Part shown: positions 1,348 to 61,579 of the stretch, one piece after another
Numbering within the stretch: the stretch's first letter is position 1
Layout of the letters: every line of letters begins with the position of its first letter
NCBI GenBank assembly: GCA_045605445.1
Contig: JAZUPZ010000029.1
Location: 26,265 to 90,264 of the forward strand
Source: Clostridia bacterium
Lineage (GTDB): Bacteria > Bacillota > Clostridia > RGIG6154
DNA length: 64,000 bases
Direction: 5' to 3'
Notes under the pieces: generated by a model
What the model was told of the DNA's origin: nothing
The model's input: the letters and a program-made list of their open reading frames with translations, nothing else
Databases searched by the model: none
Position numbers and translations under genes: made by a program

Positions 1348-4300
1348 ATGAGTGGAGGAAAAATTATGGCAAAAAGATTACTGAGCGCATTACTTGCAAC
1401 TGTAATGCTTCTCACAATGTTCACTCTGCCGTCGTTTGCGGAAACCCTTTACAGCGGAACCTGCGGTGACGGTCTGACCTGGACAATTGATTCCGAAGGC
1501 GTGTTTACTCTTTCGGGAAGCGGCGCAATGCCGGACTATGCGAGGGGAACAACTCCCTGGTATAAGTACAGAGCGGAAATAACCTCTGTTGTTATTGAGC
1601 CGGGCATTACCCGTGTAGGCAATTATGCTTTTTATCTGACAAAAATACTTGACAACATAACCCTTTCCGACGATGTGACTGAAATAGGAAGCTACGCTTT
1701 TGCTACCTGCGGTTCTGTTTCAACAGCAACATTCGGAAGCGGAGTTTCGTCAATTGAAAAAGGTGCCTTTTCGGGAACTTCAATTGGGGAAATTACCTAT
1801 ATGGGCTCAGAAAAGCAGTGGTATGAAATTCAGACAGAAAGCGGAAACGACTCTGTTATAAATTCCTATGACATCAAATTTATGGATCCCGGAGTAAGAC
1901 TTGATTCTGACGGATATTACAGATTTTATATCGACGGGGAAATACAGACCAAATGGCAGGTAAGCCCCGAAGGCTATAAATATTATTTTTCAACAAGCTC
2001 TTCAAAATACGGTGCAGCATTAACAGGAAAACAACAGAAAATAAGCAGTACATATTATGATTTTACCGACGACGGAAAGCTTATTGAAAGCTACGATTCA
2101 AACGGTGATCCCGTTCTCTTCTGCGACCCTGAGCAGGGCTTTATTTACACAATTATTTATGATGCGGGTGAAGGCGTAGCCTCTGTTGCTGACAAAAGAT
2201 TCAGAGTTTCAACTCAGGCAGACCTTACCGTTACAGCAGAAAAAGAAGGATATATCTTTGCAGGATGGACCGATACCTTCAATTCAAATCAGTGCATTTC
2301 CTCTTACGAGGTAACCGGCGACGGAGTTCTCTATGCGGTTTATATCAACGGTGCAGACCTTAAGGTTGAGCTTTGCGACGACGGTTATTACAGATACTAT
2401 GTAGGCGGAGTTGCTCAGACCGGATGGCAGGTTGCGGCGGACGGATATAAATACTATTTTTCAACAAGCTCCTCAAAGTACGGCGCAGCAATGACCGGAA
2501 CAAGCGTTAAAATCGGCGGAAGCTATTATGATTTTACATCTGACGGAAAGCTTATTGAAAGCTACGATTCTTCAAACAATCCCGTTTTGTTTTACGATGA
2601 AAGTGCAGACTGCAGACCCGTTGTTACCTACGATTACAAAACAAACGGCGGTGAAGCTGCCGATGCTTCATCATTAAGAGTAACAAAGGGTGAAAAGGCA
2701 GACCTTTCTGTTGTTGCAAGAAAATCAGGTTCAGTTTTCGTTGGCTGGAATACAAACTCCGATGCGGCGGTTGCAATAACCTCTCTTACCGTAACAGAAA
2801 ATGTTACCCTTTATGCTATTTTTGCCGATTATGCAAACAACGAGGTTGTTCTCTGCGAAGACGGCTATTACAGATATTACATAGGCGGAGTTGCCCAGAC
2901 AGGCTGGCAGATGACTCCAACCGGCCATAAATATTATTTCTCAACCTCATCTTCAAAATATGGCGCGGCAATGACCGGAGCAAGTGTTAAAATCGGTGGA
3001 AGCTATTACGATTTTACAACTGAAGGTAAGCTTATTGCAAGCTATGATAATGACGGAAACCCCGTTCTTTACTATGACCCTCTTTATGATGCTTCTGTTG
3101 AAAAACATACTGTAACCTATGACTATAAGACAAACGGCGGAAGCTCAGCAGGAGAAGAAACAAAGCAGGTTATTCACGGAAATAAGGCAGACCTTACGGT
3201 AACTGCCGAAAAAGCAGACAGCACCTTCCTCGGCTGGAATACCGATAAGAATGCTGATACAGCTTTAAGCGAGCTTGTTGTTAATGAAGACGTTATTCTT
3301 TATGCAATCTTCAAAGAAAGCGGAAGCAGCAAGGTCGTTCTTGATTCTGACGGCTTTTACAGATACTATATTAACGGCGAGGCTCAGATAGGTTTCTGGG
3401 TACTTGACGGTTATAAATACTATTTCTCAGGCTCAAATGCAACAAAGGGAAATGCCTATGTAAGCCAGACTGCAACTATCGGCGGAAAGGAATATACCTT
3501 TAACAGCCGAGGCGTAGTTGTTGATTCAAACAACGTTCCCGTTGTTTACAAACCCAATGCAGAGGTTGTTTATCTTTCAGCGGTATATTCCGAAGAGGGA
3601 ACAACTCTTACCTGGACAGGCGCTGTGGAAAACGGAACTATTTCAGGCTATAAGGTTTACAGAGCTGAAGGGGAAAATGCAGGCGATGACGATTTCAGCT
3701 TAATTGCAGTTGTGAATGAAACTCTTGACGGAACTTCATACAAAGGAACATATAACTCCACTTATTCAAAATATGATTTTGAAACTCCGGTAGCTCAGGT
3801 TGAATTTGTTGACTCAACAACTCAGGCTGATAAGGTTTACATTTACAAGGTTGAAGCAATTGCAGAAGGAGATTCGGCATCTTCAAAGGTTGCAATAAGA
3901 ACAAAAACCGGAACAGAAAGATATGTTTCCTACGACGAGGCAACCGACAGATGGTATTACTACATTGCAGGAAGCATCCAGACCGGCTGGAAGGTAACTC
4001 CCGACGGCCACAAGTGCTATTTTTCAACAAGCACAACCTCAACCGGCGCTGCTCTTGAATATGACGCAAGCATCGGAAGCACGGTTTATAACTTCACCTC
4101 CTACGGTGCTCTTATAAACAGCTATGACTCAGATTCAAATGCAGTTCTTTACACAGAAGAAATTGAAATCCCCGGAGTATCGGTAAAAGAAATAAAGCTT
4201 GACTCCGACGGATACTACAGATATTATATCGACGGAATTATCCAGACCAAGTGGCAGACAGGCCCGGACGGTTACAGATATTTCTTCTCAACCTCCTCTT

Positions 4301-7300
4301 CGAAATACGGTGCTGCAATGACCGGTAAAGGTCAGAAAATCGCCAGTGATACTTACGACTTTACCTCTGAAGGTAAGCTTATTGAAAGCTACGATTCCGA
4401 CGGAAACCCGATTCTTTATTATGATGAGTCCTTCGATATGACCCCTGTTGTTACTTATGACCATAACAACGGCAGCGCTGTTCTTGAAAAGGTAAGAGTA
4501 AAGAAAGGCGAAAAAGCAGACCTTACCGTTACAGCTAAAATGGGTAACCTCATTTTCCTTGGCTGGAATACAGATAAAAATGCAACCGAAGCTCTTACAA
4601 GCTACACAGTTGATGGAGATGTAACTCTTTATGCAATTTTCACAGATACAGTTGCAGGCGGAACCTGCGGGGACAATCTTACCTGGCAGTACAAGGTTGA
4701 CAAAACTCTGTTTATAACAGGTTCAGGGGCTACATACAGCTGGAATAATGCTGAAGATGTTCCCTGGTATGCTTACAGAAACGAAATTGAAAGAGTGGTT
4801 CTTGACGAAGAAATAACAAATATCGGCAACAACACTTTGGCAGGCTTGTCAAAAATTAAAACACTTAATATCCCTGAAAAAACACTTTATATAACAACTT
4901 CTTTAATGGGATGTTCAGCTCTTGAAGAAATAACAGTATCTTCAGGTAACACAAGATATAATTCTATAGACGGCGTACTTTACGGATATGAAGATTCAAC
5001 TCTTATTCTCTATCCTCAGGCAAAAGAAGAAGCTTCTTACGACCTTCCTGCAACAGTTAAGGTAATATTCCCATATGCTTTTGCGGAAAGTAAGCTTGAA
5101 GAAATAACTCTTACTTCCATTATTGTTAAAATTGAAGAATATGCCTTCTACGGTTGCGAAAACCTCAAAAAGGTTAAATACCCATTAACTTCAGATAAAT
5201 GGGAAAAAGTTTATGTGCTTGATGGAAACGACTGTCTTACAAACGCTCTTGAATGTGCGGCAAAAATGTATACAGTAACCTACGATGCAAACGGCGGAAC
5301 ATGCGCAACATCTTCTGTTCAGGTAGCAGAAGGCAAACAGGCAGACCTTACGGTTACCGCAGAAAAAGCAGGATATGTTTTTGCAGGCTGGAACACGGAT
5401 AAAAATGCTGCAACAGGCTTTGAATCTTTCGCGGTTAATGAAGATATTACTCTTTATGCAATATATGTTGAAGCAAACGATGTGGTTCTTTGCTCTGACG
5501 GATATTACAGATACTATGTAGGAGGAGTTGCCCAGACAGGCTTTTGGATAATTAACGGCTATAAGTACTACTTCTCAACTGCAGCGGCAAAATACGGAGC
5601 GGCACTTACAGACTCAACAGTTAAAATCAAAGGCGATTCTTATACCTTTGACAGCAAAGGAAGAGTATGTGAAAACGGAGAAGCGGTTCTCTTTGCGCCG
5701 TCTGTTACGGCGGAAGCAGGGGAAATGTCAGCTTCTCAGAGCACAACCTCTCTTAAATGGTCAGTTTCAGCAACAAATGCAAAGGTAAACGGCTACAAAA
5801 TTTACAGAGACGGTGAGCTTATCGCTGAAGAAGAGTTTGCGCTCAATGCTCTCTTCATTCAGGGGGAATACAAAAACAACGGCTCAGGAGTTTATGAATA
5901 TATCTTTGAGCCGAAAACAACAGAAATAACTTATAGAGACGAACATCTCGACCAGAACACAACTTATAATTACACTCTTGCGGTAAGCTTTGAAGGCGGA
6001 GAGGTAAGCGTAGATGCTTCTGTTCTTACCGAGGCTTATGCTTCAAGATATGTAACATATGATAAGGCAACAGACGGCTGGTATTATTATATCAACGGCG
6101 TTGCTCAGTCAGGCTGGCAGGTAACTCCCGACGGTTATAAATATTATTTCTCAAAGAGCACAGGAAAAGCTCTTAAGGGTAAAAACGTAAGAATCGGCTC
6201 CGATAACTACGACCTTGCAGATTACGGCGCACTTATCGACTCTTACGACTCTGAAGGAAATCCGGTTCTTTACAGAGAAATTAACGGCTGGTATACCAGC
6301 GCCGAGGACGGAAGCATAAGATATTACGACAACAACGTTTACCGTACCGGATGGCAGTACATTGACGGATATAAATATTATTTCTCAATGTCAAAGGGTA
6401 ATCTTCTTACGGGAATGACTCAGGTAGGAAGCACAAAGTATGACCTTGGCGAAGACGGTGCCTGGGTTGGTTATTACCAGACAGAATATACCGTCGAAGA
6501 ATCACCTAAGGCAACAGATGTTGTTCTTGGCGAAGACGGCTATTACAGATATTATCCAAACGGGGAAGAGGGCGAACCTCTTACCGGCTGGAAGGTTCTT
6601 CCGGGTGAAGATGCTTATTATAAATACTATTTCTCTAAAGCTTCAACAAAATACGGTGCGGCTGTAACAGGCTATGCCGTTCAGGTTGGTATCGGGGAAT
6701 ACAACTTCTTCCCCACAGGTGCGCTTCTTAACGTAACTGTTGACGAAAACGGTCAGGCAGTAATGGAACCATACTCATTAAGCCTTGAACAGGGGGCTAA
6801 AAACGGCCTTATCCTTGATGAAGACGGAAAATACAGATATTATATCGACGGTGAATTCCAGTCAGGCTGGATTACAATCGACGGAAGCCGTTACCTTTTA
6901 AGAAGAGCAGACGGCTCAGCAGTAACCGACGTTAACTATAAATACGGAAGCTATTATTACGACTTTACAGAAGACGGAAAGCTCGTAAGAATGAAAAACG
7001 GAGCAAGCTCAATTTATAAAATAACCTTTGCTCCCGGAGAAGGAACAGGCGAAGAAATTGTTCTTAATAAGGTTGCAGAAGACTGCTTTAAGTATGTTCT
7101 TCCTGAAAATACCTTTGAAAAAGAAGGCTATGTATTCTTCGGCTGGTCAGACGGGGTTAACACTTATGCTGCCGGAACTAAAGTTCAGGTTATGAAGGAT
7201 ACTGTGTTTACCGCAGTCTGGGCAGAAGAAGAGGTTGAAATAATAGCAAACGGAACAGTTTCCGACACAATTACCTGGTCTCTTAATGCAAAGGGATTAC

Positions 7301-10300
7301 TTAAAATTGAAGGTTCGGGAGAAATGCCTGCTTACTTTATCGGAAGCTCTCCCTGGTACAGCTACAGAGAATCAATAAAATCCGTAAGCTTCTCAAATGA
7401 GCTTTTAAATATCGGTCAGTATTCAATGTACGGCTGTGCAATTGAAAGCGTTGAAATTCCCGAAGGTGTTAAGTACATCGGCGACCACGTTTTTGAAAAC
7501 TGTGACAACCTTAAAACAATATCAATTCCTGCAAGTGTAATTGATATTGAAACCTATACTTTTACCAGCACCCCGGCCCTTGAAAGCATAACAGTTGCAG
7601 AGGGCAATAAAAATTATTATTCCAAAGACGGAGTTCTCTTCTATAAATACGGCAGCAGTGTAAAAATTATTCGTTACCCTTCAGCAAAAGAAGGGGAATA
7701 TACAGTTCCCGAGGATGTAGTGTTGATTGACATAATGGCTTTTGAAAACTGCGATAAACTTACAAAGGTAACAATGACCAACGTTCAGAGCATTGACCGT
7801 TCTTCATTTGCTTCCTGCGGTGCCCTTGAAACAGTTGTTACAGGCGACAAGCTTATTACAATTGGAGATTACGCTTTCTCTGCTTGTACTTCTCTTAAGG
7901 AAATAACATTGCCAAAAACTCTTAAATCGGTAGGCAATTATGCATTTAATAACTGTAAAGCGCTTTATAAAGTAAACTATGGCGGTTCTTTTGCAACCTG
8001 GGTTAAAATCACAATCGGAACAAACAACAGTTATCTTAAAGGTGCAGGCTTTGTTTACGGCTCTAAAGACTACACAGTTACCTTCGTCGACTGGGACGGA
8101 ACTACAATTGCAACATTGACTGTTCCCGACGGTGAGGGAGCAACAGCTCCTTCTGACCCCGAAAGAGAAGGCTATACCTTCACCGGCTGGGATAAAGATT
8201 TCTCCGTTGTAACAGGGGATATAACAGTAACAGCTCAGTATGAGGCGAATGTTGTTGTTCCTGAAACCGTTGCTTCAGGTTCTTGCGGTAGCGGCATAAC
8301 CTGGGAACTTGATAGTCTGGGAACAATGACAATCAGCGGAACAGGAAGCATGAGAAATTACAGCAATGACAGCTCAACTCCCTGGTATTCATACAGCAGT
8401 CAGATTAAAAAGGTTGTAATCGGAGAGGGTGTAACAAGAATAGGCGATTATTCATTTGCTTATTGCAGAAACATAACCGAAGTAACCCTCCCTGACACCT
8501 TGAAAACATTGGGTTTATGGTCTTTGGCATATACAGGAATAACAAAGCTTGATGTGCCTGAAGGCGTTACAAAAATAAATGAACGTGCATTGCTTGGTTG
8601 CTTATCCCTTGCAGAGCTTTCGTTGCCGAAATCACTTAGTTTTATCGGGGCACTTGCTTTTAACGGTTGTACGGGGCTTGAAAAAGTAGTTTACTATGCT
8701 TCATATGCAACCTGGACAAAAGTAACCATTGAAACGGGAAATGACCATCTTACAGGTGTAAGATTTATTTATCAGTACTCCGAGTGCAAGGTAACCTTTG
8801 TTGATTTTGACGGCACTGTTCTTAAAACAGAAACGGTAGAAGAAGGTAACCGAGCAACCGCACCTGAAGCTCCTTCAAGAGACGGTTATACCTTCATTGG
8901 CTGGGACATTGAATTTTCAAATGTAACTGAAGATATAACTGTGACGGCACAGTATGAAAAAATATGTTATACAGTAACCTTTGTTGACTTTGACGGCACT
9001 GTTCTTAAAACAGAGTCGGTAGAGGTGGGCAGTGGCGCAACAGCCCCTGAAGATCCCACAAGAGATGGTTATACCTTCACAGGTTGGGATGTTGGCTTTA
9101 CAAACGTAACTTCAAACCTGACCGTAACAGCCCAGTACGAAAGTGTTGTTAAAACATATAAAGTTATCTTTATTGATGAAATCGGTAATATAATTTCTGA
9201 ACAGACAGTTGAAGAAGGAAAGTCTGCTGTTGAACCTGAAGCACCTGTAAAATCGGGATATACATTCATAGGTTGGAATAATGATTTTACAAATGTAACA
9301 AGCAATCTGTATGTTATGCCACAGTATGAAAAAATCAAGTTAAATTACACTGTGAATTTTGTTGATTATGACGCAACGGTGCTTAAAACAGAAACAGTTT
9401 TAGAGGGCAACGGAGCAACCGCACCTTCAAATCCTGAAAGAGAAGGATATATTTTCCTTGGATGGAACAGTCTTTTTGCAAAAATAGACAGAGACAGAAC
9501 AATTACTGCAATTTATGACCCGGAAGGTCTTGGAAATATTTCTCATACCGGCACTTTTGGAAATTACAGAGATTTGAATAATGCTCATTACACAAAAATC
9601 TTAATCTGGACTCTTTACGACACAGGGATTCTTACAGTTAACGGAGCAGCAACTGCATATGGTGTAATGACAACATCAAGCGGCGGTGCTCCATGGAGCG
9701 ATTATGCGTCATCTGTTAAAGAAGCAAGAGTTTCAAAGGGTATTAAAGAAATTCTTATTGGCGCATTTGCAAACTGTACCAATTTGACAAAGGTAACCTT
9801 CAGCGAAGATATTACAACAATCGGCAGAAACGTATTTTTCAACTGTCCTGCATTGACAGATATTTATTTTGAAGGCACAAGAGAACAGTGGGAAGATGTT
9901 GCAATTGACTCAACCAACGATAGTATGCTTGAAAATGTAACAGTTCATTGCTCAGATGATGTTAAAACTTATACAGTAACCTTCCTTGGCTACAACGGAC
10001 AGGTTTTAAGTGAACAGACAGTAAATGAAGGGGAAAGCGCAACAGCTCCCGAAGCTCCTTCGGTTGACCTTTATACCTTCACCGGTTGGAATGTTGATTT
10101 TTCAAAGGTTACTTCAGATTTAACCGTAACCGCTCAGTACGAACGTTCTTCATTTATGGTATATTTCATCGGATATGAAGGCATTATTGAAGCTCAGATT
10201 ATTCCAAAGGGTGGTTCTGCAACTGCACCTGATGTACCTGCGGAAATAGACGGAAATGTGTTTATCGGCTGGGACGGTGACTTTGAAAACGTTACATCAG

Positions 10301-11382
10301 ACCTTAACATTTATGCAATATACACAATGGTTGACCCGGGCCCGGGACCAATGCCTGAAGACGGCGGTGAGTTCGGCGACGGTCTTACCTGGCACTATGA
10401 CGGAAATATGACCCTTACAATCAGCGGTAATGGTGCAATTCCCGATTATGACCCAACAAGCGGTGATATGGTTCCGTGGCAGTCATACGATATGTATATT
10501 AAGGTAATTGAAATTGAAGAAGGAATAACCGGAATAGGCAGTTACGCTTTCGGATATCTTGTGGAAGCAATGAGCATTTCAATTCCGTCCACAGTAACCT
10601 ATATTTCCGAACAGGCGTTTTTGGAACTTATGGCAATTGAATTAGTAACAATCAGCGACGATAATAGTGAATATACAGTAAAAGACGGTATGGTATTTAC
10701 TAAGGATGAAACTCATCTTGTTTACTGTCCTACACATTACAGTTCAAATGTTGTTGAGCTCGACGAAAAGGTTAAAACAATAAACTCTTATGCTTTTGCA
10801 TATAACCATTTCCTTGAAGCGGTAAATGTTGATCCTGCAAATGAATATTTCCATTCAGATGAAGGAGTTTTGTATGAAACCGCAACTTCAACTCTTGTGT
10901 ACTATCCTGCAGGGAAAATGGATGAAACCTATACAATTCTCGAAGGAACGGAAATTGTCAGAGAAAAAGCATTTTATTACACCTCTACGCTTACAGAACT
11001 GTGTGTTCCTGCAAGTGTGAAGCATATTAACGGTAACTGCTTCTCCAATGCAACATCAATTGCAACAATAACCGTTTCAGAAGATAATGAAACTTATGCA
11101 TCTGTTGAAGGTAATTTAACAGATAAAGAAGGACTGAACTTGTATTATTGTCCTACCGGAACAGTTCCAAACGGAGTTCAGGAAATCTGGACAGGCGCTT
11201 TTGATTTGAACTGCGTGTTTGAAATAACAATCCCTGTAAGTGTTACACAGGTTCACTCAAATGTGTTCTATACATTTGTGAATCAGATAAATTATCTCGG
11301 CTCTTACGAAGAATGGAATGCAATTTATATTTCAAATGAGGGTAATGATTATCTTGAGTATGCAAATATAAACTACAATTAA
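1348..11382 (+). CDS. Giant (3344 aa) secreted cell-surface protein with cell-wall-binding YG repeats, BspA-type LRRs, Fn3 domains and Listeria-Bacteroides (Flg_new) repeats
   Basis: An RBS ggagg precedes the ATG. The N-terminal signal peptide is MAKRLLSALLATVMLLTMFTLPSFA. There are many GWQ..DGYKYYFS..SKYGAAMTG choline-binding-type repeats and YAF..C..L..ITLP BspA-LRR segments. The YTVTFVD.DGTVL...GYTF.GW modules are typical of Flg_new, and the TW..GYKVYR segments are Fn3-like. Confidence 0.9.
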   Translation: MSGGKIMAKRLLSALLATVMLLTMFTLPSFAETLYSGTCGDGLTWTIDSEGVFTLSGSGAMPDYARGTTPWYKYRAEITSVVIEPGITRVGNYAFYLTKILDNITLSDDVTEIGSYAFATCGSVSTATFGSGVSSIEKGAFSGTSIGEITYMGSEKQWYEIQTESGNDSVINSYDIKFMDPGVRLDSDGYYRFYIDGEIQTKWQVSPEGYKYYFSTSSSKYGAALTGKQQKISSTYYDFTDDGKLIESYDSNGDPVLFCDPEQGFIYTIIYDAGEGVASVADKRFRVSTQADLTVTAEKEGYIFAGWTDTFNSNQCISSYEVTGDGVLYAVYINGADLKVELCDDGYYRYYVGGVAQTGWQVAADGYKYYFSTSSSKYGAAMTGTSVKIGGSYYDFTSDGKLIESYDSSNNPVLFYDESADCRPVVTYDYKTNGGEAADASSLRVTKGEKADLSVVARKSGSVFVGWNTNSDAAVAITSLTVTENVTLYAIFADYANNEVVLCEDGYYRYYIGGVAQTGWQMTPTGHKYYFSTSSSKYGAAMTGASVKIGGSYYDFTTEGKLIASYDNDGNPVLYYDPLYDASVEKHTVTYDYKTNGGSSAGEETKQVIHGNKADLTVTAEKADSTFLGWNTDKNADTALSELVVNEDVILYAIFKESGSSKVVLDSDGFYRYYINGEAQIGFWVLDGYKYYFSGSNATKGNAYVSQTATIGGKEYTFNSRGVVVDSNNVPVVYKPNAEVVYLSAVYSEEGTTLTWTGAVENGTISGYKVYRAEGENAGDDDFSLIAVVNETLDGTSYKGTYNSTYSKYDFETPVAQVEFVDSTTQADKVYIYKVEAIAEGDSASSKVAIRTKTGTERYVSYDEATDRWYYYIAGSIQTGWKVTPDGHKCYFSTSTTSTGAALEYDASIGSTVYNFTSYGALINSYDSDSNAVLYTEEIEIPGVSVKEIKLDSDGYYRYYIDGIIQTKWQTGPDGYRYFFSTSSSKYGAAMTGKGQKIASDTYDFTSEGKLIESYDSDGNPILYYDESFDMTPVVTYDHNNGSAVLEKVRVKKGEKADLTVTAKMGNLIFLGWNTDKNATEALTSYTVDGDVTLYAIFTDTVAGGTCGDNLTWQYKVDKTLFITGSGATYSWNNAEDVPWYAYRNEIERVVLDEEITNIGNNTLAGLSKIKTLNIPEKTLYITTSLMGCSALEEITVSSGNTRYNSIDGVLYGYEDSTLILYPQAKEEASYDLPATVKVIFPYAFAESKLEEITLTSIIVKIEEYAFYGCENLKKVKYPLTSDKWEKVYVLDGNDCLTNALECAAKMYTVTYDANGGTCATSSVQVAEGKQADLTVTAEKAGYVFAGWNTDKNAATGFESFAVNEDITLYAIYVEANDVVLCSDGYYRYYVGGVAQTGFWIINGYKYYFSTAAAKYGAALTDSTVKIKGDSYTFDSKGRVCENGEAVLFAPSVTAEAGEMSASQSTTSLKWSVSATNAKVNGYKIYRDGELIAEEEFALNALFIQGEYKNNGSGVYEYIFEPKTTEITYRDEHLDQNTTYNYTLAVSFEGGEVSVDASVLTEAYASRYVTYDKATDGWYYYINGVAQSGWQVTPDGYKYYFSKSTGKALKGKNVRIGSDNYDLADYGALIDSYDSEGNPVLYREINGWYTSAEDGSIRYYDNNVYRTGWQYIDGYKYYFSMSKGNLLTGMTQVGSTKYDLGEDGAWVGYYQTEYTVEESPKATDVVLGEDGYYRYYPNGEEGEPLTGWKVLPGEDAYYKYYFSKASTKYGAAVTGYAVQVGIGEYNFFPTGALLNVTVDENGQAVMEPYSLSLEQGAKNGLILDEDGKYRYYIDGEFQSGWITIDGSRYLLRRADGSAVTDVNYKYGSYYYDFTEDGKLVRMKNGASSIYKITFAPGEGTGEEIVLNKVAEDCFKYVLPENTFEKEGYVFFGWSDGVNTYAAGTKVQVMKDTVFTAVWAEEEVEIIANGTVSDTITWSLNAKGLLKIEGSGEMPAYFIGSSPWYSYRESIKSVSFSNELLNIGQYSMYGCAIESVEIPEGVKYIGDHVFENCDNLKTISIPASVIDIETYTFTSTPALESITVAEGNKNYYSKDGVLFYKYGSSVKIIRYPSAKEGEYTVPEDVVLIDIMAFENCDKLTKVTMTNVQSIDRSSFASCGALETVVTGDKLITIGDYAFSACTSLKEITLPKTLKSVGNYAFNNCKALYKVNYGGSFATWVKITIGTNNSYLKGAGFVYGSKDYTVTFVDWDGTTIATLTVPDGEGATAPSDPEREGYTFTGWDKDFSVVTGDITVTAQYEANVVVPETVASGSCGSGITWELDSLGTMTISGTGSMRNYSNDSSTPWYSYSSQIKKVVIGEGVTRIGDYSFAYCRNITEVTLPDTLKTLGLWSLAYTGITKLDVPEGVTKINERALLGCLSLAELSLPKSLSFIGALAFNGCTGLEKVVYYASYATWTKVTIETGNDHLTGVRFIYQYSECKVTFVDFDGTVLKTETVEEGNRATAPEAPSRDGYTFIGWDIEFSNVTEDITVTAQYEKICYTVTFVDFDGTVLKTESVEVGSGATAPEDPTRDGYTFTGWDVGFTNVTSNLTVTAQYESVVKTYKVIFIDEIGNIISEQTVEEGKSAVEPEAPVKSGYTFIGWNNDFTNVTSNLYVMPQYEKIKLNYTVNFVDYDATVLKTETVLEGNGATAPSNPEREGYIFLGWNSLFAKIDRDRTITAIYDPEGLGNISHTGTFGNYRDLNNAHYTKILIWTLYDTGILTVNGAATAYGVMTTSSGGAPWSDYASSVKEARVSKGIKEILIGAFANCTNLTKVTFSEDITTIGRNVFFNCPALTDIYFEGTREQWEDVAIDSTNDSMLENVTVHCSDDVKTYTVTFLGYNGQVLSEQTVNEGESATAPEAPSVDLYTFTGWNVDFSKVTSDLTVTAQYERSSFMVYFIGYEGIIEAQIIPKGGSATAPDVPAEIDGNVFIGWDGDFENVTSDLNIYAIYTMVDPGPGPMPEDGGEFGDGLTWHYDGNMTLTISGNGAIPDYDPTSGDMVPWQSYDMYIKVIEIEEGITGIGSYAFGYLVEAMSISIPSTVTYISEQAFLELMAIELVTISDDNSEYTVKDGMVFTKDETHLVYCPTHYSSNVVELDEKVKTINSYAFAYNHFLEAVNVDPANEYFHSDEGVLYETATSTLVYYPAGKMDETYTILEGTEIVREKAFYYTSTLTELCVPASVKHINGNCFSNATSIATITVSEDNETYASVEGNLTDKEGLNLYYCPTGTVPNGVQEIWTGAFDLNCVFEITIPVSVTQVHSNVFYTFVNQINYLGSYEEWNAIYISNEGNDYLEYANINYN
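8791..9157 (+). repeat. Two adjacent near-identical ~183-bp coding modules (Flg_new repeats) inside the giant gene
   Basis: gtaacctttgttga(t/c)tttgacggcactgttcttaaaacaga... occurs at 8791 and again at 8975 with high nucleotide identity. Confidence 0.7.
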
Positions 11383-16376: not shown

Positions 16377-17653
16377 CAGATATAAAAACCCTGGGCGTTC
16401 TTTGTGACGGAACCTGCGAAACGGAAAAAATTCAGAATGCAATAAACCTTTGCGCCGAAAAGGGCGAGGTTCTGGAATTTACAGAAGGCGTTTATTATAC
16501 GGCGTCTCTGGAGCTTAAAAACAACAGCCATCTTTATCTTAATGAAAATGCTGTTATAAAGGCTTCCGAAAATGAAAATGACTGGGAAAACTGCAATCAT
16601 AAACCGCTTATAAATGCAGTTGAAAAAGAAAATATAACAATAGAAGGAAAGGGGAAAATTGACTGCAGCGGCGATAAATATCACGATTTTGACGGAAACC
16701 GCTCTCTCGGATGGCGTCCCGAAACAACAATAAATTTTCAGAACAGTAAAAATATAAAGCTTTATGATTTTACTGCAGGAAACTCCGTTGCCTGGACAGT
16801 TCATTTTAACGATTGCGAATATGTAGGCATAGAAAGGGTAATCTTAAGAAATCCCGACTGGTGGTGCGGAAAAAGCAACGACGGTTTTGATATAAACGGT
16901 TGCCGCCACGTTAAAATAAAAGATTGCGACGTGGAAGTAGGCGACGATGGTATCTGCCTTAAAAATTATCACAATGGCGAAGACAGAAAGCCAATGTTCG
17001 ATATTCTGGTTACCGACTGTATCGTTCGTTCAACCTGCGGAGCTCTTAAAATAGGAACCGAAACTCAGGGCGATATCTACGACGTTCGCATAGAAAACAT
17101 AAAAATAGAGGATCACAGAAATCCCAACATTTTCCGTCATCCCGATTTCGGCGGACACTCATTAACTGCCATTTCAATTCATTCAAATGACGGCGCCCAT
17201 GTTCACGATATAACCTTTAAAAATATTCATGCAACCTACGCAAATACGGGAATATTCATATTCCTTCAGAAAAGATATATGATGATAAACAACCCCAATC
17301 AGAAAAAAGCGGTAGTGCTTAAAGAACCGAAAATGGGCAAAATTTCAAATATCTTAATTGACGGGCTTACGGTTGAACACGCTCAGAGAGCCAATCAGAT
17401 AAATGTAGGCGAAGGCGGACTTGTAGAAAACGTAAAAATAAAAAATGTAAATATAACCGTATACGAGGATAACAACGGCGATTACGAGGCAATAGTTCCC
17501 GAAAGCCGCAGCTATCCCGACGGTTACGCCTACGGTCATATGCCTGCCTACAGTCTCTTTGCAAGAAGAGTGAAGAACCTTTCCTATGAAGAAAATATAA
17601 GGGTTAGAGATGTGTTTAATACCGGTCGCCCGGCAATAATTGTAGAACCTTAA
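16373..17653 (+). CDS. Pectate-lyase-superfamily / GH28-like glycoside hydrolase (paralog 2), translationally coupled to paralog 1 (ATGA overlap)
   Basis: It is paralogous to the upstream gene, with LGVLCDGT..T..IQNAIN and shared GHMPAYGLY / GHMPAYSLF C-terminal motifs. Confidence 0.6.
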   Translation: MTDIKTLGVLCDGTCETEKIQNAINLCAEKGEVLEFTEGVYYTASLELKNNSHLYLNENAVIKASENENDWENCNHKPLINAVEKENITIEGKGKIDCSGDKYHDFDGNRSLGWRPETTINFQNSKNIKLYDFTAGNSVAWTVHFNDCEYVGIERVILRNPDWWCGKSNDGFDINGCRHVKIKDCDVEVGDDGICLKNYHNGEDRKPMFDILVTDCIVRSTCGALKIGTETQGDIYDVRIENIKIEDHRNPNIFRHPDFGGHSLTAISIHSNDGAHVHDITFKNIHATYANTGIFIFLQKRYMMINNPNQKKAVVLKEPKMGKISNILIDGLTVEHAQRANQINVGEGGLVENVKIKNVNITVYEDNNGDYEAIVPESRSYPDGYAYGHMPAYSLFARRVKNLSYEENIRVRDVFNTGRPAIIVEP

Positions 17654-17840
17654 AAAACTTTTCTCTGCTGCGTTACAGCTCGTTGCCGTACCTTTGTACT
17701 GTTTGCCTCGCTGTGCCTTGCAGATAAAAGTTTTTAAGAACCTGCTTGGAATGTTAAAATTGCACGCATACAGTTACAACTAAAAAAGAACAAAGTCAGG
17801 CGTCTGCCTGACTTTGAACATCAATTATTTATTATTAACT

Positions 17841-17866
17841 AAAGAGCCTTCGGGCTCTTTTTTTAC
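17841..17866. terminator. Bidirectional hairpin terminator (agagcc-ttcg-ggctct with a T-run)
   Basis: A stem-loop has flanking A and T runs and overlaps the stop codon of the small peptide gene. Confidence 0.5.
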
Positions 17867-17989
17867 TGACAGCAGTCGTTATTTCCGAAAATGCTGTCGT
17901 TTCCGTTAGAGAAAAGAGCAATTACTATAATTGCAATAATTATGATCCAGATCCAGTTTGTGTCGTTATTGCAGCAACAATTATTCATA
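17864..17989 (-). CDS. Small (41 aa) Cys-rich hydrophobic peptide, YjcZ-like (MNNCCCNNDTNWIWIIIIAIIVIALFSNGNDSIFGNNDCCQ)
   Basis: I translated this ORF by hand. It is below the 60-aa track cut-off. It has a hydrophobic core flanked by Cys/Asn/Asp-rich ends and a weak RBS aaagg. Confidence 0.45.
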
Positions 17990-18019
17990 GGGTTAACCTT
18001 TCTGCCCTTTGTAGTTTGC

Positions 18020-18046
18020 CTTCCGCCCCGGGCGAGGGCGGAAGGA
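18020..18046. other. GC-rich 10-bp-stem hairpin (ccttccgccc-cgggcga-gggcggaagg) between the two small peptide genes
   Basis: Perfect complementarity is visible in the sequence. No U-tract follows on the minus strand. Confidence 0.5.
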
Positions 18047-18060
18047 TGTACGGTTAAGTT

Positions 18061-18189
18061 CAGCAGTCAGATTTGCAATAATCGTCGCCGCAGCCGTCGT
18101 TACAGCCCTTACCGCACCAGAAGAGCAATAAGAAAAGAATAATGAACCAGAGAATTGTATCCTGGTCAAAGCCGTCAAAAAGTTTCATT
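18061..18189 (-). CDS. Small (42 aa) Cys-rich hydrophobic peptide, YjcZ-like (MKLFDGFDQDTILWFIILFLLLFWCGKGCNDGCGDDYCKSDC)
   Basis: I translated this ORF by hand. A GGAGG RBS lies 7 nt upstream of the ATG at 18189. The architecture matches the downstream peptide. Confidence 0.5.
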
Positions 18190-18271
18190 CGTCAAACCTC
18201 CTTTTCAATACATAATATGATATCTTTATATTTTTGTTACAGCGTATAACGCCTTTCGTTGACTTTTTAAA

Positions 18272-18300
18272 TAAAAAAGAGTAAAATAAGGTTATTCAAC
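18272..18300 (+). promoter_or_regulatory. Sigma-A-like promoter TTGACT-17-TAAAAT upstream of the ugtP-like gene
   Basis: The hexamers and their spacing were read directly from the sequence. Confidence 0.4.
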
Positions 18301-18322
18301 ATAAGAAGGGAGAAGATCTTAA

Positions 18323-19435
18323 TTGAAGGTACTTATTTTGTCAGTTTCAACAGGCGGAGGACACTATTCCGCAAGCCTTGCAATAGAAAAATACATAACC
18401 GAAACGGGAAACGAGGCAAAGGTTGTTGATGCATATGAATATATAAGTCCGCTTATCAGTGATTCTATTTCAAAGGGATATCTGCTTTCAACCAAGTATG
18501 CAAAAACGGTTTATGGACAGATTTACAAAAGAATGGAAAAAACCGATGCAACCGAAAAAAGAATGTATCTTTCAAAAGCGGCAAATACCGTTTTAAGCAT
18601 TCCTTTTGCAAGCTGTGTTGAGGAATATAAGCCCGATATTATCGTAAGTACTCACGTTATGGCGTGTGAAATGGTAGATGCTTTAAGAAACAGCGGAAAG
18701 CTTGATGACAATGTTATAACAATCGGAATTGTTACCGATTTTACCGTTCATCCCCTCTGGGAGGACACCTATGTTGACTATTATATAAGTGCCTCGGAGC
18801 TTTTAAACAATCAGTTTGCAAAAAAGAAAATAGACCTTGAAAAGGTTCTGCCCTTAGGAATCCCAATCGACGGGAAATATGCGGAAAAAATGCCGAAGGA
18901 GGAAGCAAGAAAGCTTCTTGGAATTGAAAACAAGCCTACCGTTCTGGTTATGAGCGGGTCAATGGGATATGGCAACATTACAAAACATATCAAGGAACTT
19001 GACAAGCTTGAAATGGATTTCCAGATGCTTATCGTCTGCGGCAAAAACAAAAGTCTTTTCAAAAGGATGAACGAGCTGAAAACTGAAAAGAGTAAAACTG
19101 TTTTTGGCTTTGTTGATAATGTTGATGTTATGATGGACGCTTCCGACTGTATAATTACCAAGCCCGGCGGACTTACCGTTTCCGAGGCTCTGGCAAAAGG
19201 TCTGCCTCTTATTTTAATGAATCCTATTCCCGGTCAGGAGGACAGAAATTTAGAGTTCCTCTTAAACAACGGAATTGCTCAGTATATAACTGACACCTAT
19301 CCGGTTGATGAAGCGGTTTTTCAGCTTTTCAACAACCAATGGAAGAAAAATAATTTAAGCGAAGGAATTAAATATATCGGAAAGCCCAATGCCACAAGGG
19401 ACCTTTGCGATTTTATAACAGGACTTGGAAAATGA
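18323..19435 (+). CDS. MGDG-synthase-family (GT28) diacylglycerol glycosyltransferase, UgtP-like
   Basis: The N-terminal LILSVSTGGGHYSAS is the hallmark of UgtP/MGDG synthase. The start is TTG with an RBS aagggagaag. Confidence 0.75.
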   Translation: MKVLILSVSTGGGHYSASLAIEKYITETGNEAKVVDAYEYISPLISDSISKGYLLSTKYAKTVYGQIYKRMEKTDATEKRMYLSKAANTVLSIPFASCVEEYKPDIIVSTHVMACEMVDALRNSGKLDDNVITIGIVTDFTVHPLWEDTYVDYYISASELLNNQFAKKKIDLEKVLPLGIPIDGKYAEKMPKEEARKLLGIENKPTVLVMSGSMGYGNITKHIKELDKLEMDFQMLIVCGKNKSLFKRMNELKTEKSKTVFGFVDNVDVMMDASDCIITKPGGLTVSEALAKGLPLILMNPIPGQEDRNLEFLLNNGIAQYITDTYPVDEAVFQLFNNQWKKNNLSEGIKYIGKPNATRDLCDFITGLGK

Positions 19436-27205: not shown

Positions 27206-28117
27206 ATGAAAAAGTTGAAAAATGCAAGTTTTTGTGTAGTAAGTTGCATTTTACTTACAATTCTTATCCCTTTTTTTGTTTTTCTTTCAAAGGATAAGCC
27301 TCCGGCAAAAGAAGAAATAACTCTTGAGATTTACGATGAAACGCTTAATGAAGTATATGAAATGGGACTCGAAGATTATGTTTTGTGTGTTATAAGAAAA
27401 GAGGTTCCGTCGGGTTACCACGCTGAGGCGCTAAAGGCTCAGGCAGTAGCAATAAGAAGCTATGCTCTGAAAAAAGCCGGAAACAATTCTCATAATAATG
27501 CCGACCTTTGCACCTCTTTTTCCTGCTGTATGGCGTTTTTGTCCGATAAAGAAGCAGAAGAAAAATGGGGAGACGATTTTGAAAAGATAAACAGCATATA
27601 CAAAAAAGCTGTAGCGGAAACAAAAGGTCAGATTTTAAAGTATGAAGGTGAAATTGCAAATACTGTGTTTTTTGCAATTTCCTCGGGGAAAACCGAAAAT
27701 TCAAAGGATGTGTGGGGAGGGGAGGTTCCCTATCTTGTTAGTGTTGACAGCAGTGAAGACTTAACCGCCGAAGGCTTTGAAAGCGTACTTGAAATTACGG
27801 AGGAGGAGTTTAAAAACAAGCTTAATGTGGAAAACGGACTTGTAGGTGAAATTGAAAGAAGCGAAGGCGGTAGTGTCAGGAAAATAAAAATAGGAGGAAA
27901 AAGCTTTTCGGGGAGCGAAATAAGAAAAATATTCGGCTTAAGGTCGGCAAATTTTGAAATTGAAAGGGCAAACAGTATAAAATTCAAAGTAAAGGGCTAC
28001 GGACACGGCGTTGGAATGAGTCAGAACGGGGCTAATGAGTGTGCAAAAAAGGGGATGGCTTACGAAGAAATTCTTTATAAATACTATCAGGGAACCCTGC
28101 TTGTTGATTTATTCTGA
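27206..28117 (+). CDS. spoIID: Stage II sporulation protein D (SpoIID/LytB-domain lytic transglycosylase)
   Basis: The SpoIID signature GYHAEALKAQAVAIRSYAL is present, with an N-terminal TM anchor. Confidence 0.85.
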   Translation: MKKLKNASFCVVSCILLTILIPFFVFLSKDKPPAKEEITLEIYDETLNEVYEMGLEDYVLCVIRKEVPSGYHAEALKAQAVAIRSYALKKAGNNSHNNADLCTSFSCCMAFLSDKEAEEKWGDDFEKINSIYKKAVAETKGQILKYEGEIANTVFFAISSGKTENSKDVWGGEVPYLVSVDSSEDLTAEGFESVLEITEEEFKNKLNVENGLVGEIERSEGGSVRKIKIGGKSFSGSEIRKIFGLRSANFEIERANSIKFKVKGYGHGVGMSQNGANECAKKGMAYEEILYKYYQGTLLVDLF

Positions 28118-30096: not shown

Positions 30097-30205
30097 AAAA
30101 TTACCAAATATTATGTTACTTTTGCCCAAGCTTATTTCGTTGACAACAGCCCCTGCTTTGTGGTAAAATTATAATGATATATTATGATTTTCAGTGGGGG
30201 ACGTT

Positions 30206-32086
30206 ATGGAACGTAAAGTAAAAAGATATTCTCCGTATGTTTTTGCGGTTACTGACCTTGTGTGTATTCTTCTGTCATTTCTTTTTGCAGTTGCAATGAT
30301 AGATGCAGGAAGAATAGTAACTGAGGGGTTATGGAGAAAAATTTTAAGCAATGCGTTTATCTTTTACGGAATTACTGTTGTATTTCAGCTTATTTTCCGG
30401 TGCCCGAAGAGCATCTGGACAAAGGCAAATGTAGACGATTATGCAAACTTTTTTATATCCTGCATTGCAACAATTGCGGTTGACATTGTTTTAAGCATGC
30501 TTCTTCACGATGCTATGCTTCCCGTAAAAGACAATATATTAGGTGTTCTCACCGCAACGACTTTGATTGTTGTGTCAAGAATTGCCGTTAAATATATCGG
30601 GAAATATCTGAATATGGTTATTCTGAAAACCTATAATCCAAGTCATAAAAACCTTCTAATTGTAGGTGCCGGTGTTGCGGCAAAAATACTTATTTCGGAT
30701 ATAATCGATGTTAAGGCGCAGAAATATAATATAATCGGCTTTATTGACGATGATGTGAGAAAACAGAATTACAGCTATCTTGGTTATAAGGTTCTCGGTA
30801 CCAGGGATGATATTATAAAAATCTGCGAGGAAAAGCTGGTTGATGAAATAATTGTTGCCATTCCTTCGGGACATAAGGAGGATATCAGCAAAATTGTTGA
30901 CATCTGCAGTAAAACCGTTTGCAAGGTTAAAATTATTCCCGATGTTTTCGGAACCGTAAAAAGCTCAAACGGAATTTTAAGACAGGCAAGAGATGTTGAA
31001 ATTGAAGACCTTCTGCCCAGAACGGAAATCCGTCTTGATAACAGCGAAATTTCCGAACAGCTCAACGGAAAAGTTGTTCTTGTAACCGGAGGAGGCGGCT
31101 CAATCGGAAGCGAGCTTTGCCGTCAGATTGCAAAATTTTCTCCCAAGCAGCTTATCGTTGTTGATATTTATGAAAATAATGCTTACGACCTTCAGAATGA
31201 GCTCAGATTTGAACATCCTTATCTCGATGTTGAGGTTCTTATTGCTTCAATCAGGGATTACGACAGGATGGACTCTATTTTCAAAACCTATAATCCTTAT
31301 ATTGTTTTTCATGCAGCAGCTCATAAACACGTTCCGCTTATGGAGGATTCTCCCGGTGAAGCTGTTAAAAACAATATTTTCGGAACCTATAACGTTGCAA
31401 AATGTGCAAGCGTGAACAAAATAGAAAAATTTGTTATGATTTCAACAGACAAGGCGGTTAACCCTACAAATGTTATGGGAGCAACCAAAAAGTTCTGCGA
31501 AATGATTATAGGTGCTTTCCAGGCTCAGGAGGGCACAAGATTTGCAATAGTGCGTTTCGGTAACGTTCTTGGAAGCAACGGCTCGGTAATTCCTTTGTTT
31601 AAAAGGCAGATTGCCAAGGGCGGTCCCGTTACCGTAACTCATAAAGATATAACAAGATATTTTATGACAATTCCCGAGGCTGCTCAGCTTGTGCTTCAGG
31701 CTTCTGCCTATGCACAGGGCGGAGAAATTTTCGTTCTTGATATGGGAAGACCTGTTAAAATTTACGACCTTGCGGTTAACGTAATCAAGCTTTCGGGTTT
31801 CGTTCCCGAGGAGGATATAAAAATTGAGGTTACCGGTTTAAGACCCGGCGAAAAGCTTTATGAAGAGCTCCTTACCGCCGAGGACGGACTTAAAGGAACT
31901 TATAATAAGAGTATTTTCGTTGCTCAGCCCCATTCCTTTACAATGGATGAGGTTCTCGCAAAAATGGACGAGCTTAAAAAGGCTCTTGAAAGCGGTGAAA
32001 ACAAAAAGGTTGTGAAAACTCTTCACGAGGTTGTTCCTTCCTTTGTTCCGGCGGAGATATTTAACGCACAAAAACAAAACCAATAA
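30206..32086 (+). CDS. Membrane-bound NDP-sugar 4,6-dehydratase/epimerase (CapD/PglF/WbpM family)
   Basis: N-terminal TM helices are followed by a Rossmann LVTGGGGSIGSEL and the Polysacc_synt_2 domain. I chose the ATG at 30206, with RBS ggggga, over the GTG at 30194. Confidence 0.85.
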   Translation: MERKVKRYSPYVFAVTDLVCILLSFLFAVAMIDAGRIVTEGLWRKILSNAFIFYGITVVFQLIFRCPKSIWTKANVDDYANFFISCIATIAVDIVLSMLLHDAMLPVKDNILGVLTATTLIVVSRIAVKYIGKYLNMVILKTYNPSHKNLLIVGAGVAAKILISDIIDVKAQKYNIIGFIDDDVRKQNYSYLGYKVLGTRDDIIKICEEKLVDEIIVAIPSGHKEDISKIVDICSKTVCKVKIIPDVFGTVKSSNGILRQARDVEIEDLLPRTEIRLDNSEISEQLNGKVVLVTGGGGSIGSELCRQIAKFSPKQLIVVDIYENNAYDLQNELRFEHPYLDVEVLIASIRDYDRMDSIFKTYNPYIVFHAAAHKHVPLMEDSPGEAVKNNIFGTYNVAKCASVNKIEKFVMISTDKAVNPTNVMGATKKFCEMIIGAFQAQEGTRFAIVRFGNVLGSNGSVIPLFKRQIAKGGPVTVTHKDITRYFMTIPEAAQLVLQASAYAQGGEIFVLDMGRPVKIYDLAVNVIKLSGFVPEEDIKIEVTGLRPGEKLYEELLTAEDGLKGTYNKSIFVAQPHSFTMDEVLAKMDELKKALESGENKKVVKTLHEVVPSFVPAEIFNAQKQNQ

Positions 32087-41244: not shown

Positions 41245-41257
41245 GGGGGAACAGATT

Positions 41258-41893
41258 TTGTATAAGTGTTTTTTTAAGAGATTTTTTGATATTGTTATTT
41301 CGTTTTTCGGTGTTCTTGCGTTCTTACTTGTTTTCATAATAGTTGCACCAATTATTCATTTTACCGACGGAGGTCCTGTTTTCTACAATGCACAGAGAAG
41401 GGGAAGAAACGGCGAGGTTTTCAAAATGTATAAATTCCGTTCAATGAAGGTAAACTCGCCCGACCTTCGCAATGCCGACGGCTCTACATATAACGGCGAT
41501 AACGATCCCAGAGTTACAAAAATCGGAAGAATACTGAGAAAAACCAGCCTTGATGAAATTCCTCAGGTGCTCAATATTTTTCTTGGCGATATGAGCATCG
41601 TTGGTCCTCGTCCGGTGCTTCCTACAAAGCCCGTTGACAGAACCGATGAAATGAGAATGAAAAGGTTCAGCGTAAGACCCGGTCTTACAGGATATAATCA
41701 GGCATATTTCAGAAATTCCGTTGATCAGGAAACAAAGCTTAAAAACGACTGCTACTATGTTGACCATCTTACCTTTATGATGGACGTTAAGGTTATTTTT
41801 GTAACTGCATTAAACGTTCTCAGAAGAAAAAATGTTTACGTTGAACAGGGTGAAACTCATATTGCGCCCGAAAAGGAAGAGGTTAACAAATAA
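41258..41893 (+). CDS. Undecaprenyl-phosphate sugar phosphotransferase, small PglC/WbaP-C-terminal type (priming transferase)
   Basis: FKRFFDIVISFFGVL...KMYKFRSM...PRVTKIGRILRKTSLDELPQ is the bacterial sugar-transferase signature. I chose the TTG start at 41258 with an RBS agggggaa. Confidence 0.8.
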   Translation: MYKCFFKRFFDIVISFFGVLAFLLVFIIVAPIIHFTDGGPVFYNAQRRGRNGEVFKMYKFRSMKVNSPDLRNADGSTYNGDNDPRVTKIGRILRKTSLDEIPQVLNIFLGDMSIVGPRPVLPTKPVDRTDEMRMKRFSVRPGLTGYNQAYFRNSVDQETKLKNDCYYVDHLTFMMDVKVIFVTALNVLRRKNVYVEQGETHIAPEKEEVNK

Positions 41894-43074: not shown

Positions 43075-43083
43075 GTGTGAATT

Positions 43084-44382: not shown

Positions 44383-44385
44383 ATT

Positions 44386-45732: not shown

Positions 45733-45735
45733 AAA

Positions 45736-50032: not shown

Positions 50033-50041
50033 GTGAGGAAA

Positions 50042-52425: not shown

Positions 52426-52442
52426 ATTGAAAGGAATGTAAT

Positions 52443-53927: not shown

Positions 53928-53930
53928 GAA

Positions 53931-56083: not shown

Positions 56084-56095
56084 AGGAAGTATTTT

Positions 56096-57277: not shown

Positions 57278-57295
57278 AACAAAGGAGAAGGATTT

Positions 57296-61555: not shown

Positions 61556-61579
61556 AACTATTTTATCACAAAAATTTGT

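Follow-up and report, generated by a model that had tools for sequence, protein, structure and literature searches.

The window analyzed here, the whole 64,000-nucleotide stretch of Clostridia bacterium contig JAZUPZ010000029.1, carries on its minus strand two tandem genes for Cys-rich, single-helix membrane micropeptides, which are referred to as pepA and pepB. The two genes, together with a promoter, an intercistronic stem-loop and terminators, constitute a self-contained two-gene operon. The features of the locus, in the order of transcription, are the following, the two genes being taken from the open reading frame (ORF) listing and the ribosome-binding site being abbreviated RBS.

18240..18235, minus strand: -35-like element GTAACA with the AC of sigma-K type, a motif shared by the related loci
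18219..18212, minus strand: -10-like element CATATTAT of the mother-cell sigma-E/K type, starting 16 nt past the AC of the -35 element
18201..18197, minus strand: RBS of pepA, GGAGG, 8 nt before the ATG and identical in four close relatives
18188..18060, minus strand: pepA, 42 aa, A-type micropeptide, MKLFDGFDQDTILWFIILFLLLFWCGKGCNDGCGDDYCKSDC
18045..18019, minus strand: GC-rich intercistronic stem-loop, 10 perfect base pairs plus a G-U pair, loop of 5-7 nt
18002..17997, minus strand: RBS of pepB, GAAAGG, 8 nt before the ATG
17988..17863, minus strand: pepB, 41 aa, B-type micropeptide, MNNCCCNNDTNWIWIIIIAIIVIALFSNGNDSIFGNNDCCQ
17836..17865, strand unassigned: first hairpin, directly 3' of the pepB stop codon, of bidirectional form with a T-run on the plus strand
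17816..17781, minus strand: predicted intrinsic-terminator-like hairpin of 11 bp (stem 17816-17791), followed by TTCTTTTTT

Both ORFs are present on the minus strand exactly as they had been translated by hand in the initial annotation of this DNA, which also named the GGAGG found in front of the first gene; the span given there for the pair, 17864-18189, is one base off. The predicted PepA has an acidic N-terminus followed by a nearly invariant transmembrane (TM) core, DTILWFIILFLLLFWC; its C-terminal tail contains five cysteines. PepB begins with a CCC-Asn N-terminus, continues with the TM segment NWIWIIIIAIIVIALF and ends in a tail that terminates with IFGNNDCCQ. The proposed architecture of a single helix flanked by Cys-rich ends is thereby borne out for both peptides. 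The hairpin at 17816-17791, with the adjoining TTCTTTTTT, is the probable end of the two-gene transcript. The description of the pair as unannotated could be checked in part only: the exact PepA sequence is a nameless entry of NCBI origin in the public protein collection (P0001), and a word-based search of that collection with PepB alone gave no match, the peptide sharing no words with its entries.

Conservation of the tandem pair

All relatives of PepA in the public protein collection contain DTILWFIILFLLLFWC, and they include nameless 'hypothetical proteins' of Acetivibrio thermocellus, A. straminisolvens and A. mesophilus. Relatives of PepB could be reached only through a profile built from the B-type peptides of the loci themselves. 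A scan of one genome per species, covering 185,579 species, revealed 29 A-type loci, all of them in Clostridia, and the closest relatives were uncultured Eubacteriales/Oscillospiraceae metagenome-assembled genomes. A second small TM-peptide ORF lies beside the A-type gene in 19 of the 29 loci, as detected by an automated scan. At 17 of these 19 loci it is a B-type gene located downstream, 20-89 nt away where the distance was measured and usually behind AAAGGAG, and its product displays a signature composed of a Cys/Asn-rich N-terminus, a [DN]xW motif and an Ile-rich helix. The B-type gene of locus L009 is known only as a motif in a six-frame check, without coordinates. At loci L020 and L023 a small TM-peptide gene is positioned upstream of the A-type gene instead, and L023 contains an additional, looser B-like gene 121 nt downstream of it. 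The tandem arrangement is also present in the cultured species A. straminisolvens (L033), with an A-type gene at 3001-3126 and a 30-aa B-type gene at 3167-3259, and in L017, L034 and L036, three loci closely related to the window.

Synonymous (dS) and nonsynonymous (dN) divergence, computed with the Nei-Gojobori method, points to strong constraint on both products. Between the window and L017, pepA has a dS of 1.0 and a dN of 0.09, and pepB a dS of 2.0 and a dN of 0.10, which corresponds to a dN/dS of 0.05 for the latter; the dN/dS of pepA is 0.06-0.09 with respect to L017 and L025. Over 17 pairs the ratio ranges from 0.03 to 0.34 for A-type and from 0.02 to 0.14 for B-type genes where dS is measurable, many B-type comparisons being synonymously saturated with dN values of 0.03-0.46. 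The conservation of the two small frames, which the initial annotation had put forward as a check, is thus found in many genomes, in tandem and under purifying selection.

Longer ORFs overlap the pair in other frames, one of 83 aa on the plus strand (17891-18142) and one of 61 aa on the minus strand (17993-18178). They exist in the window as listed, and it had been feared that their conservation would weaken the case for the micropeptides. Both frames are, however, interrupted in related loci, whereas the short frames retain mostly synonymous change, their RBSs and their tandem order across distant genomes. The idea that pepA and pepB are chance ORFs and that one of the longer frames is the true gene has, consequently, next to no probability. 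Because the tandem order is conserved, the sequences are under purifying selection and the alternative frames are not kept open, we conclude with high confidence that pepA and pepB are real, selectively maintained coding genes. The pair is an ancient unit.

A conserved sigma-K-like promoter motif

Within the 130 nt that precede the gene, the motif AC-N15-17-CATAnnnT was detected in 24 of 30 loci, compared with 3.4% of background windows and 3.2% of shuffled sequences. In a corrected count, which started from the leading gene of the L020 and L023 clusters, admitted any first base of the -10 element, extended the range to 160 nt and added L033, the motif is present in 29 of 31 loci. Positions that the pattern does not demand are conserved as well among the 29 matched loci: a T precedes [A/C]AC in all of them and a G precedes that T in 21, an A follows the AC in 25, and a G follows the -10 element in 22. 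The resulting consensus is gT[A/C]ACA-N16-17-CATAwwwTg. The CA ahead of TAnnnT is nearly fixed (C in 26/29, A in 29/29), the third position of the -35 hexamer is never G (0/29) and is occupied by A or C instead, and the sigma-K-specific C of the -35 element is found in every matched locus. The spacers between the two elements show no relationship from one lineage to another.

With both strands included, 30 occurrences of the extended motif were counted in 348 kb of loci, about as many as there are peptide promoters, and two in the window (128 kb counting both strands). One of the two occurrences is the promoter of the pair, which reads GTAACA-N15-CATATTAT from hexamer to octamer (18240..18212). 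The other, TCACA-N15-AATAGTAT at 61566-61593 on the plus strand, is a weaker match located 24 nt before the start of trpS (61617), and is probably due to chance. An AC in the -35 element, some 15-17 nt of spacer and a -10 element of the form CATA---T are encountered together in the window and in 29 of the 31 loci.

In Bacillus subtilis, the promoters of sigma-K and sigma-E share the -10 element and differ in one base of the -35 element, where sigma-K promoters have C and sigma-E promoters T (PMC517825). In Clostridioides difficile, the -35 element reads AC in sigma-K promoters and ATA in sigma-E promoters, and CATATTAT has been called the canonical mother-cell -10 box (PMC3789822). With moderate confidence as to regulation, the promoter of the pair looks like one of the late mother-cell sigma-K type and not of the forespore type. 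The forespore factors sigma-G and sigma-F recognize GnATR at -35 and CATnnTA at -10. A forespore-type -10 candidate, catatta, had been proposed for this locus, with the remark that it was speculative, and it had to be abandoned. The CATATTA of the window, which fits the forespore -10 element alone, is part of the mother-cell box CATATTAT; CATxxTA is not kept, most loci having CATATATT or CATAATAT at this place; and the forespore -35 element GnATR occurs in none of the matched loci, where the conserved element is T[A/C]ACA.

At locus L007, which lacks the sigma-K-like motif, the A-type gene is immediately preceded by tandem units of about 13 nt (aaaccttacaggt), at approximately 1440-1570.

Peptide families, stem-loop and genomic context

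A search with the A-type profile against 1.84 billion representatives, clustered at 50% identity and with a limit of E<=1e-3, yielded 71 clusters. The short members of the family measure 32-82 aa and share the core LWFIILFLLLF, or a close variant of it, between variable tails that are either Cys/Asn/Asp-rich or Gly/Tyr-rich. Exceptions among the clusters are P0090, which holds two B-type units, and P0072, a repetitive 664-aa protein whose match is weak and doubtful; P0025 and P0026 are long mis-called or read-through products that still have the A-type core at their N-terminus. In an alignment of 60 A-type members, L13, F15 and F23 are invariant and seven more positions of the core are conserved at 90% or above. 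The B-type profile retrieved 21 further peptides with the core WIWIII(I/V)I(A/I), among them P0110, whose end, IFGNNDCCC, resembles that of PepB. When the two profiles were aligned with hhalign, the alignment extended over the polar-Trp boundary as well as the helix with a probability of 81% and an E-value of 1.2e-5, a score that the mutual likeness of TM helices tends to inflate. The A and B families are probably paralogous.

Several proteins contain two units in a single chain, namely A-A fusions in P0048, P0064, P0071 and P0080 and B-B fusions in P0090, P0103 and P0105. Each fused unit keeps its own conserved helix, and no A-B fusion was seen among the fusion proteins found. The existence of such natural two-unit fusions suggests that the micropeptide units act in pairs and that their helices would pair.

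Neither family corresponds to a model in Pfam or NCBIfam, as determined with PepA, PepB, 60 A-type and 17 B-type relatives, and neither the core motif nor any comparable clostridial micropeptide turned up in a literature search. The sub-threshold matches to DltX, PEF-CTERM, FtsH_ext and TatA in these databases were dismissed as noise arising from hydrophobic composition. The DltX model (PF12459), for instance, gives 13.3 bits with PepA against a gathering threshold of 25 and matches 7 of the 60 relatives at E<=10 (best E = 6.4e-4), and no dlt genes are adjacent. Both families are uncharacterised and, among the species genomes scanned, confined to Clostridia.

The GC-rich hairpin that the initial annotation had described between the two genes is present as a perfect 10-bp repeat. 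Its arms, 18019-18028 and 18036-18045, are 100% complementary and are extended by a G-U pair, and the structure is unique within the window. The stem-loop alone has a folding energy of -21.4 kcal/mol (z = -5.4 with respect to shuffles), and the entire 71-nt spacer one of -24.7 kcal/mol (z = -1.96). Because a U-tract is lacking on either strand, the hairpin is not a canonical terminator. Imperfect homologous stem-loops occupy the same place in L017 (-9.6 kcal/mol, z = -1.4), L034 (-10.5 kcal/mol, z = -2.2) and L036 (-10.3 kcal/mol, z = -2.2). L034 and L036 preserve the stem base CCTTC/GAAGG, which reads TCTTC/CAAGG in L017, and one inner pair is changed on both sides, from C-G in the window to U-A in L036, according to a manual reading of the folds. 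RNAalifold, applied to the four sequences, found no covariation and preferred another pairing, in which the loop segment TTTGCCC is joined to GGGCAGAAAGG (17997-18035 on the minus strand of the window, and likewise in L017, L034 and L036). The block GGGCAGAAAGG contains the RBS of pepB and is invariant in the four close relatives, and this pairing could be an RBS-occluding fold that competes with the hairpin. The whole intergenic region of L017 folds no better than its shuffles (z = +0.2).

Distant loci mostly have no comparable stem-loop; their spacers usually comprise 20-44 nt with the RBS only, and AAAGGAG precedes the B-type gene. A general role of the hairpin in tuning the relative expression of the two genes, as had been surmised, does not agree with this distribution, since only the four closest genomes retain the structure and most other loci lack it. 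Judged from the sequences compared, the stem-loop is a clade-specific addition and not a defining part of the system, and it may serve as a barrier to decay or modulate translational coupling. The Rfam candidates within 17400-18500, STnc130 (26 vs 55 bits) and BSR0709 (25 vs 382 bits), both fall on terminator hairpins, far below their thresholds, and were rejected.

The surroundings of the pair differ between lineages and consist for the most part of common housekeeping or regulatory genes. A divergent upstream gene for an MGDG-synthase-type glycosyltransferase is shared by the window group and the group of L005, L012, L015 and L027, and the genes for a CCA-adding enzyme (window, L036) and a convergent GH28 protein (window, L034, L035) are found in the window group only. 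Elsewhere the neighbors are pheS, a pair of extracytoplasmic-function (ECF) sigma and anti-sigma genes, or genes for a PPTase and an HMA protein. In L003, L004, L006, L008, L009, L010, L014, L018 and L019, the peptide pair is directly preceded, on its own strand, by the ECF sigma gene and its zf-HC2 anti-sigma partner, and the short locus L013 has the anti-sigma gene alone in this position. These genes are located about 150-1900 nt before the A-type gene, with a terminator-like sequence and a sigma-K-like promoter in between.

The window includes spoIID (27206-28117, plus strand), which scores 281 bits against an NCBIfam cut-off of 234.75, and a gene for a SpoVB-like MATE-fold flippase (32468-34063, plus strand), which scores 241 bits, below the cut-off of 372. 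Their presence suggests that the host is an endospore former.

Other genes were noted elsewhere in the window. A 3344-aa ORF (1348-11382, plus strand) with BspA-type leucine-rich and Listeria-Bacteroides repeats probably encodes a cell-surface adhesin. At 36541-39312 (plus strand) there is a complete MmeI-family fused restriction-modification enzyme with N-terminal, helicase-spacer, methyltransferase, target-recognition and C-terminal domains. A same-strand cluster at 40051-58039 (plus strand), which includes genes for a PseC-like aminotransferase and two ATP-grasp enzymes, looks, together with a PseB-like dehydratase fusion at 30194-32086, like a locus for nonulosonic-acid or glycan biosynthesis. 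The L-serine ammonia-lyase ORF at 34969-36423 (plus strand) matches an RstR-type helix-turn-helix repressor over residues 9-83, which may reflect the merging of two genes by a mis-assigned start codon or a real fusion.

Proposed role and relation to known systems

The best explanation of these data, to which we assign a probability of roughly 60%, is that pepA and pepB would form a late mother-cell operon under sigma-K that provides two paired membrane micropeptides of the spore envelope. Transcription by sigma-K RNA polymerase would most likely take place in the mother cell at a late stage of sporulation. The two products would then most likely insert through their conserved helices into the mother-cell membrane or the outer forespore membrane, where they would probably act together, while their short Cys/Asn/Asp/Gly-rich tails would be exposed and might help in the assembly of the spore envelope, for example through thiol cross-linking or metal binding. 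The proposal builds on the reality of the genes, their tandem conservation, the purifying selection, the conservation of the promoter, the lack of a partner enzyme gene and the sporulation genes of the host, all of which were observed; from these we infer which sigma factor is involved, the timing and localization, the interaction between A and B and the role of the tails. Confidence in any specific biochemical role of the two peptides is low.

Several observations weigh against this explanation. The promoter scores 9/12 as a sigma-70-type site (GTAACA-17-TATTAT), the motif is absent from two of the 31 loci (L007 and L016), and the Acetivibrio/Pseudobacteroides group has A, not C, at the first base of the -10 element. 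No neighboring gene is conserved across 30 loci, synteny being lineage-specific only, and the surroundings offer no pointer to a pathway. The paralogy of A and B is no more than probable. The Cys-rich tails are not kept throughout the family, the Acetivibrio members being Gly/Tyr-rich, and because of this variation a fixed metal site is unlikely.

The score against the sigma-70 consensus, with its 17-nt spacer, is also what favors a reading of the peptides as vegetative small membrane proteins expressed from a housekeeping sigma factor, such as accessory subunits of membrane complexes or stress peptides. The -10 element of sigma-A, TAnnnT, lies inside CATAnnnT, and neighbors such as the MGDG-synthase-type glycosyltransferase, the CCA-adding enzyme and pheS are housekeeping genes. 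Nevertheless, a sigma-A promoter is disfavored because the critical G of TTGACA is missing from all 29 matched loci and because the CA before TAnnnT, for which sigma-A has no need, is fixed. The restriction of the family to Clostridia does not suit a housekeeping role either, and we regard this reading as rather improbable. Peptides so short and so hydrophobic, with a single helix, could alternatively damage membranes, as a type I toxin or as a holin-like trigger of mother-cell lysis, to which a late mother-cell timing would be suited. The PepB helix is, however, devoid of flanking basic residues (there are none in PepB), and the tails of PepA are net acidic. The type I modules of B. subtilis are transcribed by sigma-A (PMC10730256), a type to which the promoter found here probably does not belong. 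No antisense RNA gene or promoter is evident, as the promoter-like sites of the opposite strand are accounted for by neighboring genes, and Rfam returned no family at threshold for 17400-18500. Single-copy, syntenic conservation with strong purifying selection is, moreover, atypical of toxin-antitoxin loci. A membrane-damaging function appears very improbable, although a holin-like role in mother-cell lysis retains a small probability. Two tandem short Cys-rich peptides in Clostridia might also recall precursors of ribosomally synthesized and post-translationally modified peptides (RiPPs) or bacteriocins, of the ranthipeptide/SCIFF-like, sactipeptide or two-peptide kind. Against this stands the lack, in any lineage, of a nearby gene for a radical-SAM enzyme, lanthionine synthetase, protease, ABC exporter or immunity protein. 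Moreover, the helix is conserved while the Cys-rich parts vary, the opposite of what a modified core would display, and no SCIFF or other RiPP model of NCBIfam matched at E<=10. An origin as RiPP or bacteriocin precursors has, therefore, a minimal probability.

The remaining alternative concerns the YjcZ family of small sporulation proteins, to which the initial annotation had compared the peptides. As far as architecture is concerned, the comparison stands: the two peptides measure 41-42 aa, the core of their single helix is nearly invariant across 60 relatives while the low-complexity flanks vary, all 29 loci belong to Clostridia with members in A. thermocellus, A. straminisolvens and A. mesophilus, and the window contains spoIID. 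Membership in the family does not. The NCBIfam model TIGR01732 ('YjcZ family sporulation protein', tiny_TM_bacill; 26 positions, cut-off 21.35 bits) assigned 53 and 43.8 bits to two positive controls built on the YjcZ consensus, and gave no match at E<=10 to PepA, PepB, 60 A-type, 17 B-type and three further members (79 distinct peptides), so that the search with a YjcZ model proposed at the outset came back negative. Pfam has no YjcZ-type match for either window peptide or for the 60 A-type relatives, and remote YjcZ homology was examined with the NCBIfam model only. When plasmids were searched by tblastn with a YjcZ consensus, no match was returned, probably on account of the low-complexity filter. 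The core differs as well, being LWFIILFLLLFW or WIWIIII in the present families and FALLVVLFILLIIVG in what we take to be the YjcZ core, which was taken from the description of the model and is backed only in an indirect way by the control scores. Because TIGR01732 detects the controls and no peptide of the families, membership fails, and the possibility that PepA and PepB are true but very divergent, unannotated paralogues of YjcZ is judged unlikely. In its favor are the common size, the single conserved helix, the variable low-complexity tails rich in Gly, Cys and Tyr, the apparent restriction to endospore formers, the predicted sigma-K promoter, as for B. subtilis yjcZ, and the multi-copy nature of YjcZ genes in Bacillus (PMC8313275).

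A more far-reaching version of the spore-envelope proposal, which is possible although doubtful, holds that A and B would assemble through their nearly invariant helices into an obligate hetero-oligomer. Such a complex would be a hitherto unrecognized, Clostridia-wide component of late spore morphogenesis, independent of YjcZ in its evolution, and might serve as an anchored thiol-rich or metal-binding linker between the outer forespore membrane and the coat, or as a regulator of a conserved sporulation-membrane machine. Micropeptide genes are routinely missed, and protein databases contain neither pepB nor most of its relatives. The clostridial late mother-cell program is poorly known and retains few of the coat genes of Bacillus, and the A+B pair with its sigma-K-type promoter represents a testable addition to it. 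The presence of the family in the genetically tractable A. thermocellus makes knock-outs, dependence on sigK and localization amenable to experiment.

Known systems of small peptides share individual traits with the pair. SCIFF/ranthipeptide precursors are Cys-rich peptides of about 45 aa, with six cysteines in forty-five residues, and are widespread in Clostridia; they are not known to have a TM helix or to occur apart from a radical-SAM maturase, whereas the A+B loci have neither a maturase nor a match to the SCIFF model. CotY/CotZ and CdeC/CdeM are Cys-rich coat or exosporium proteins of the sigma-K stage that are thought to cross-link the outer spore layers. They differ from PepA and PepB in being larger and soluble and in lacking a TM anchor, and no homology to them was found. 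SpoVM and CmpA are not known to possess a full hydrophobic TM segment or Cys-rich tails, and they have no sequence similarity to PepA or PepB. The likeness lies in their being very small sporulation peptides made in the mother cell, as is proposed for PepA and PepB. Both act at the forespore surface in the assembly of coat and cortex, SpoVM as a 26-aa amphipathic surface helix that depends on sigma-E and CmpA as a ClpXP adaptor (PMC10730256). Type I toxins such as TxpA and BsrG are likewise short single-helix membrane peptides overlooked by annotation. By contrast, they are accompanied by antisense RNA, transcribed by sigma-A and often carried by mobile elements (PMC10730256), while the pair described here has a sporulation-type promoter, chromosomal synteny and acidic instead of basic tails.

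The YjcZ proteins provide the closest parallel. Differences are the fixed tandem arrangement of the A+B genes and their occurrence in Clostridia, YjcZ genes having been seen in B. subtilis and B. cereus, in addition to the silence of the model and the unlike core motif. In both cases, peptides of 35-50 aa with one conserved hydrophobic helix and variable Gly/Cys-rich flanks, often multi-copy, are found in known or presumed endospore formers. Moreover, yjcZ of B. subtilis is a member of the sigma-K regulon (PMC517825), in agreement with the type of promoter conserved at the A+B loci. This conserved promoter of sporulation type and the confinement of the family to Clostridia strengthen the architectural likeness. 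The analogy predicts timing and not mechanism. By analogy, PepA and PepB would be the clostridial functional counterpart of YjcZ without recognizable membership in that family, and the pair would offer a handle on the function of YjcZ-like tiny sporulation proteins.

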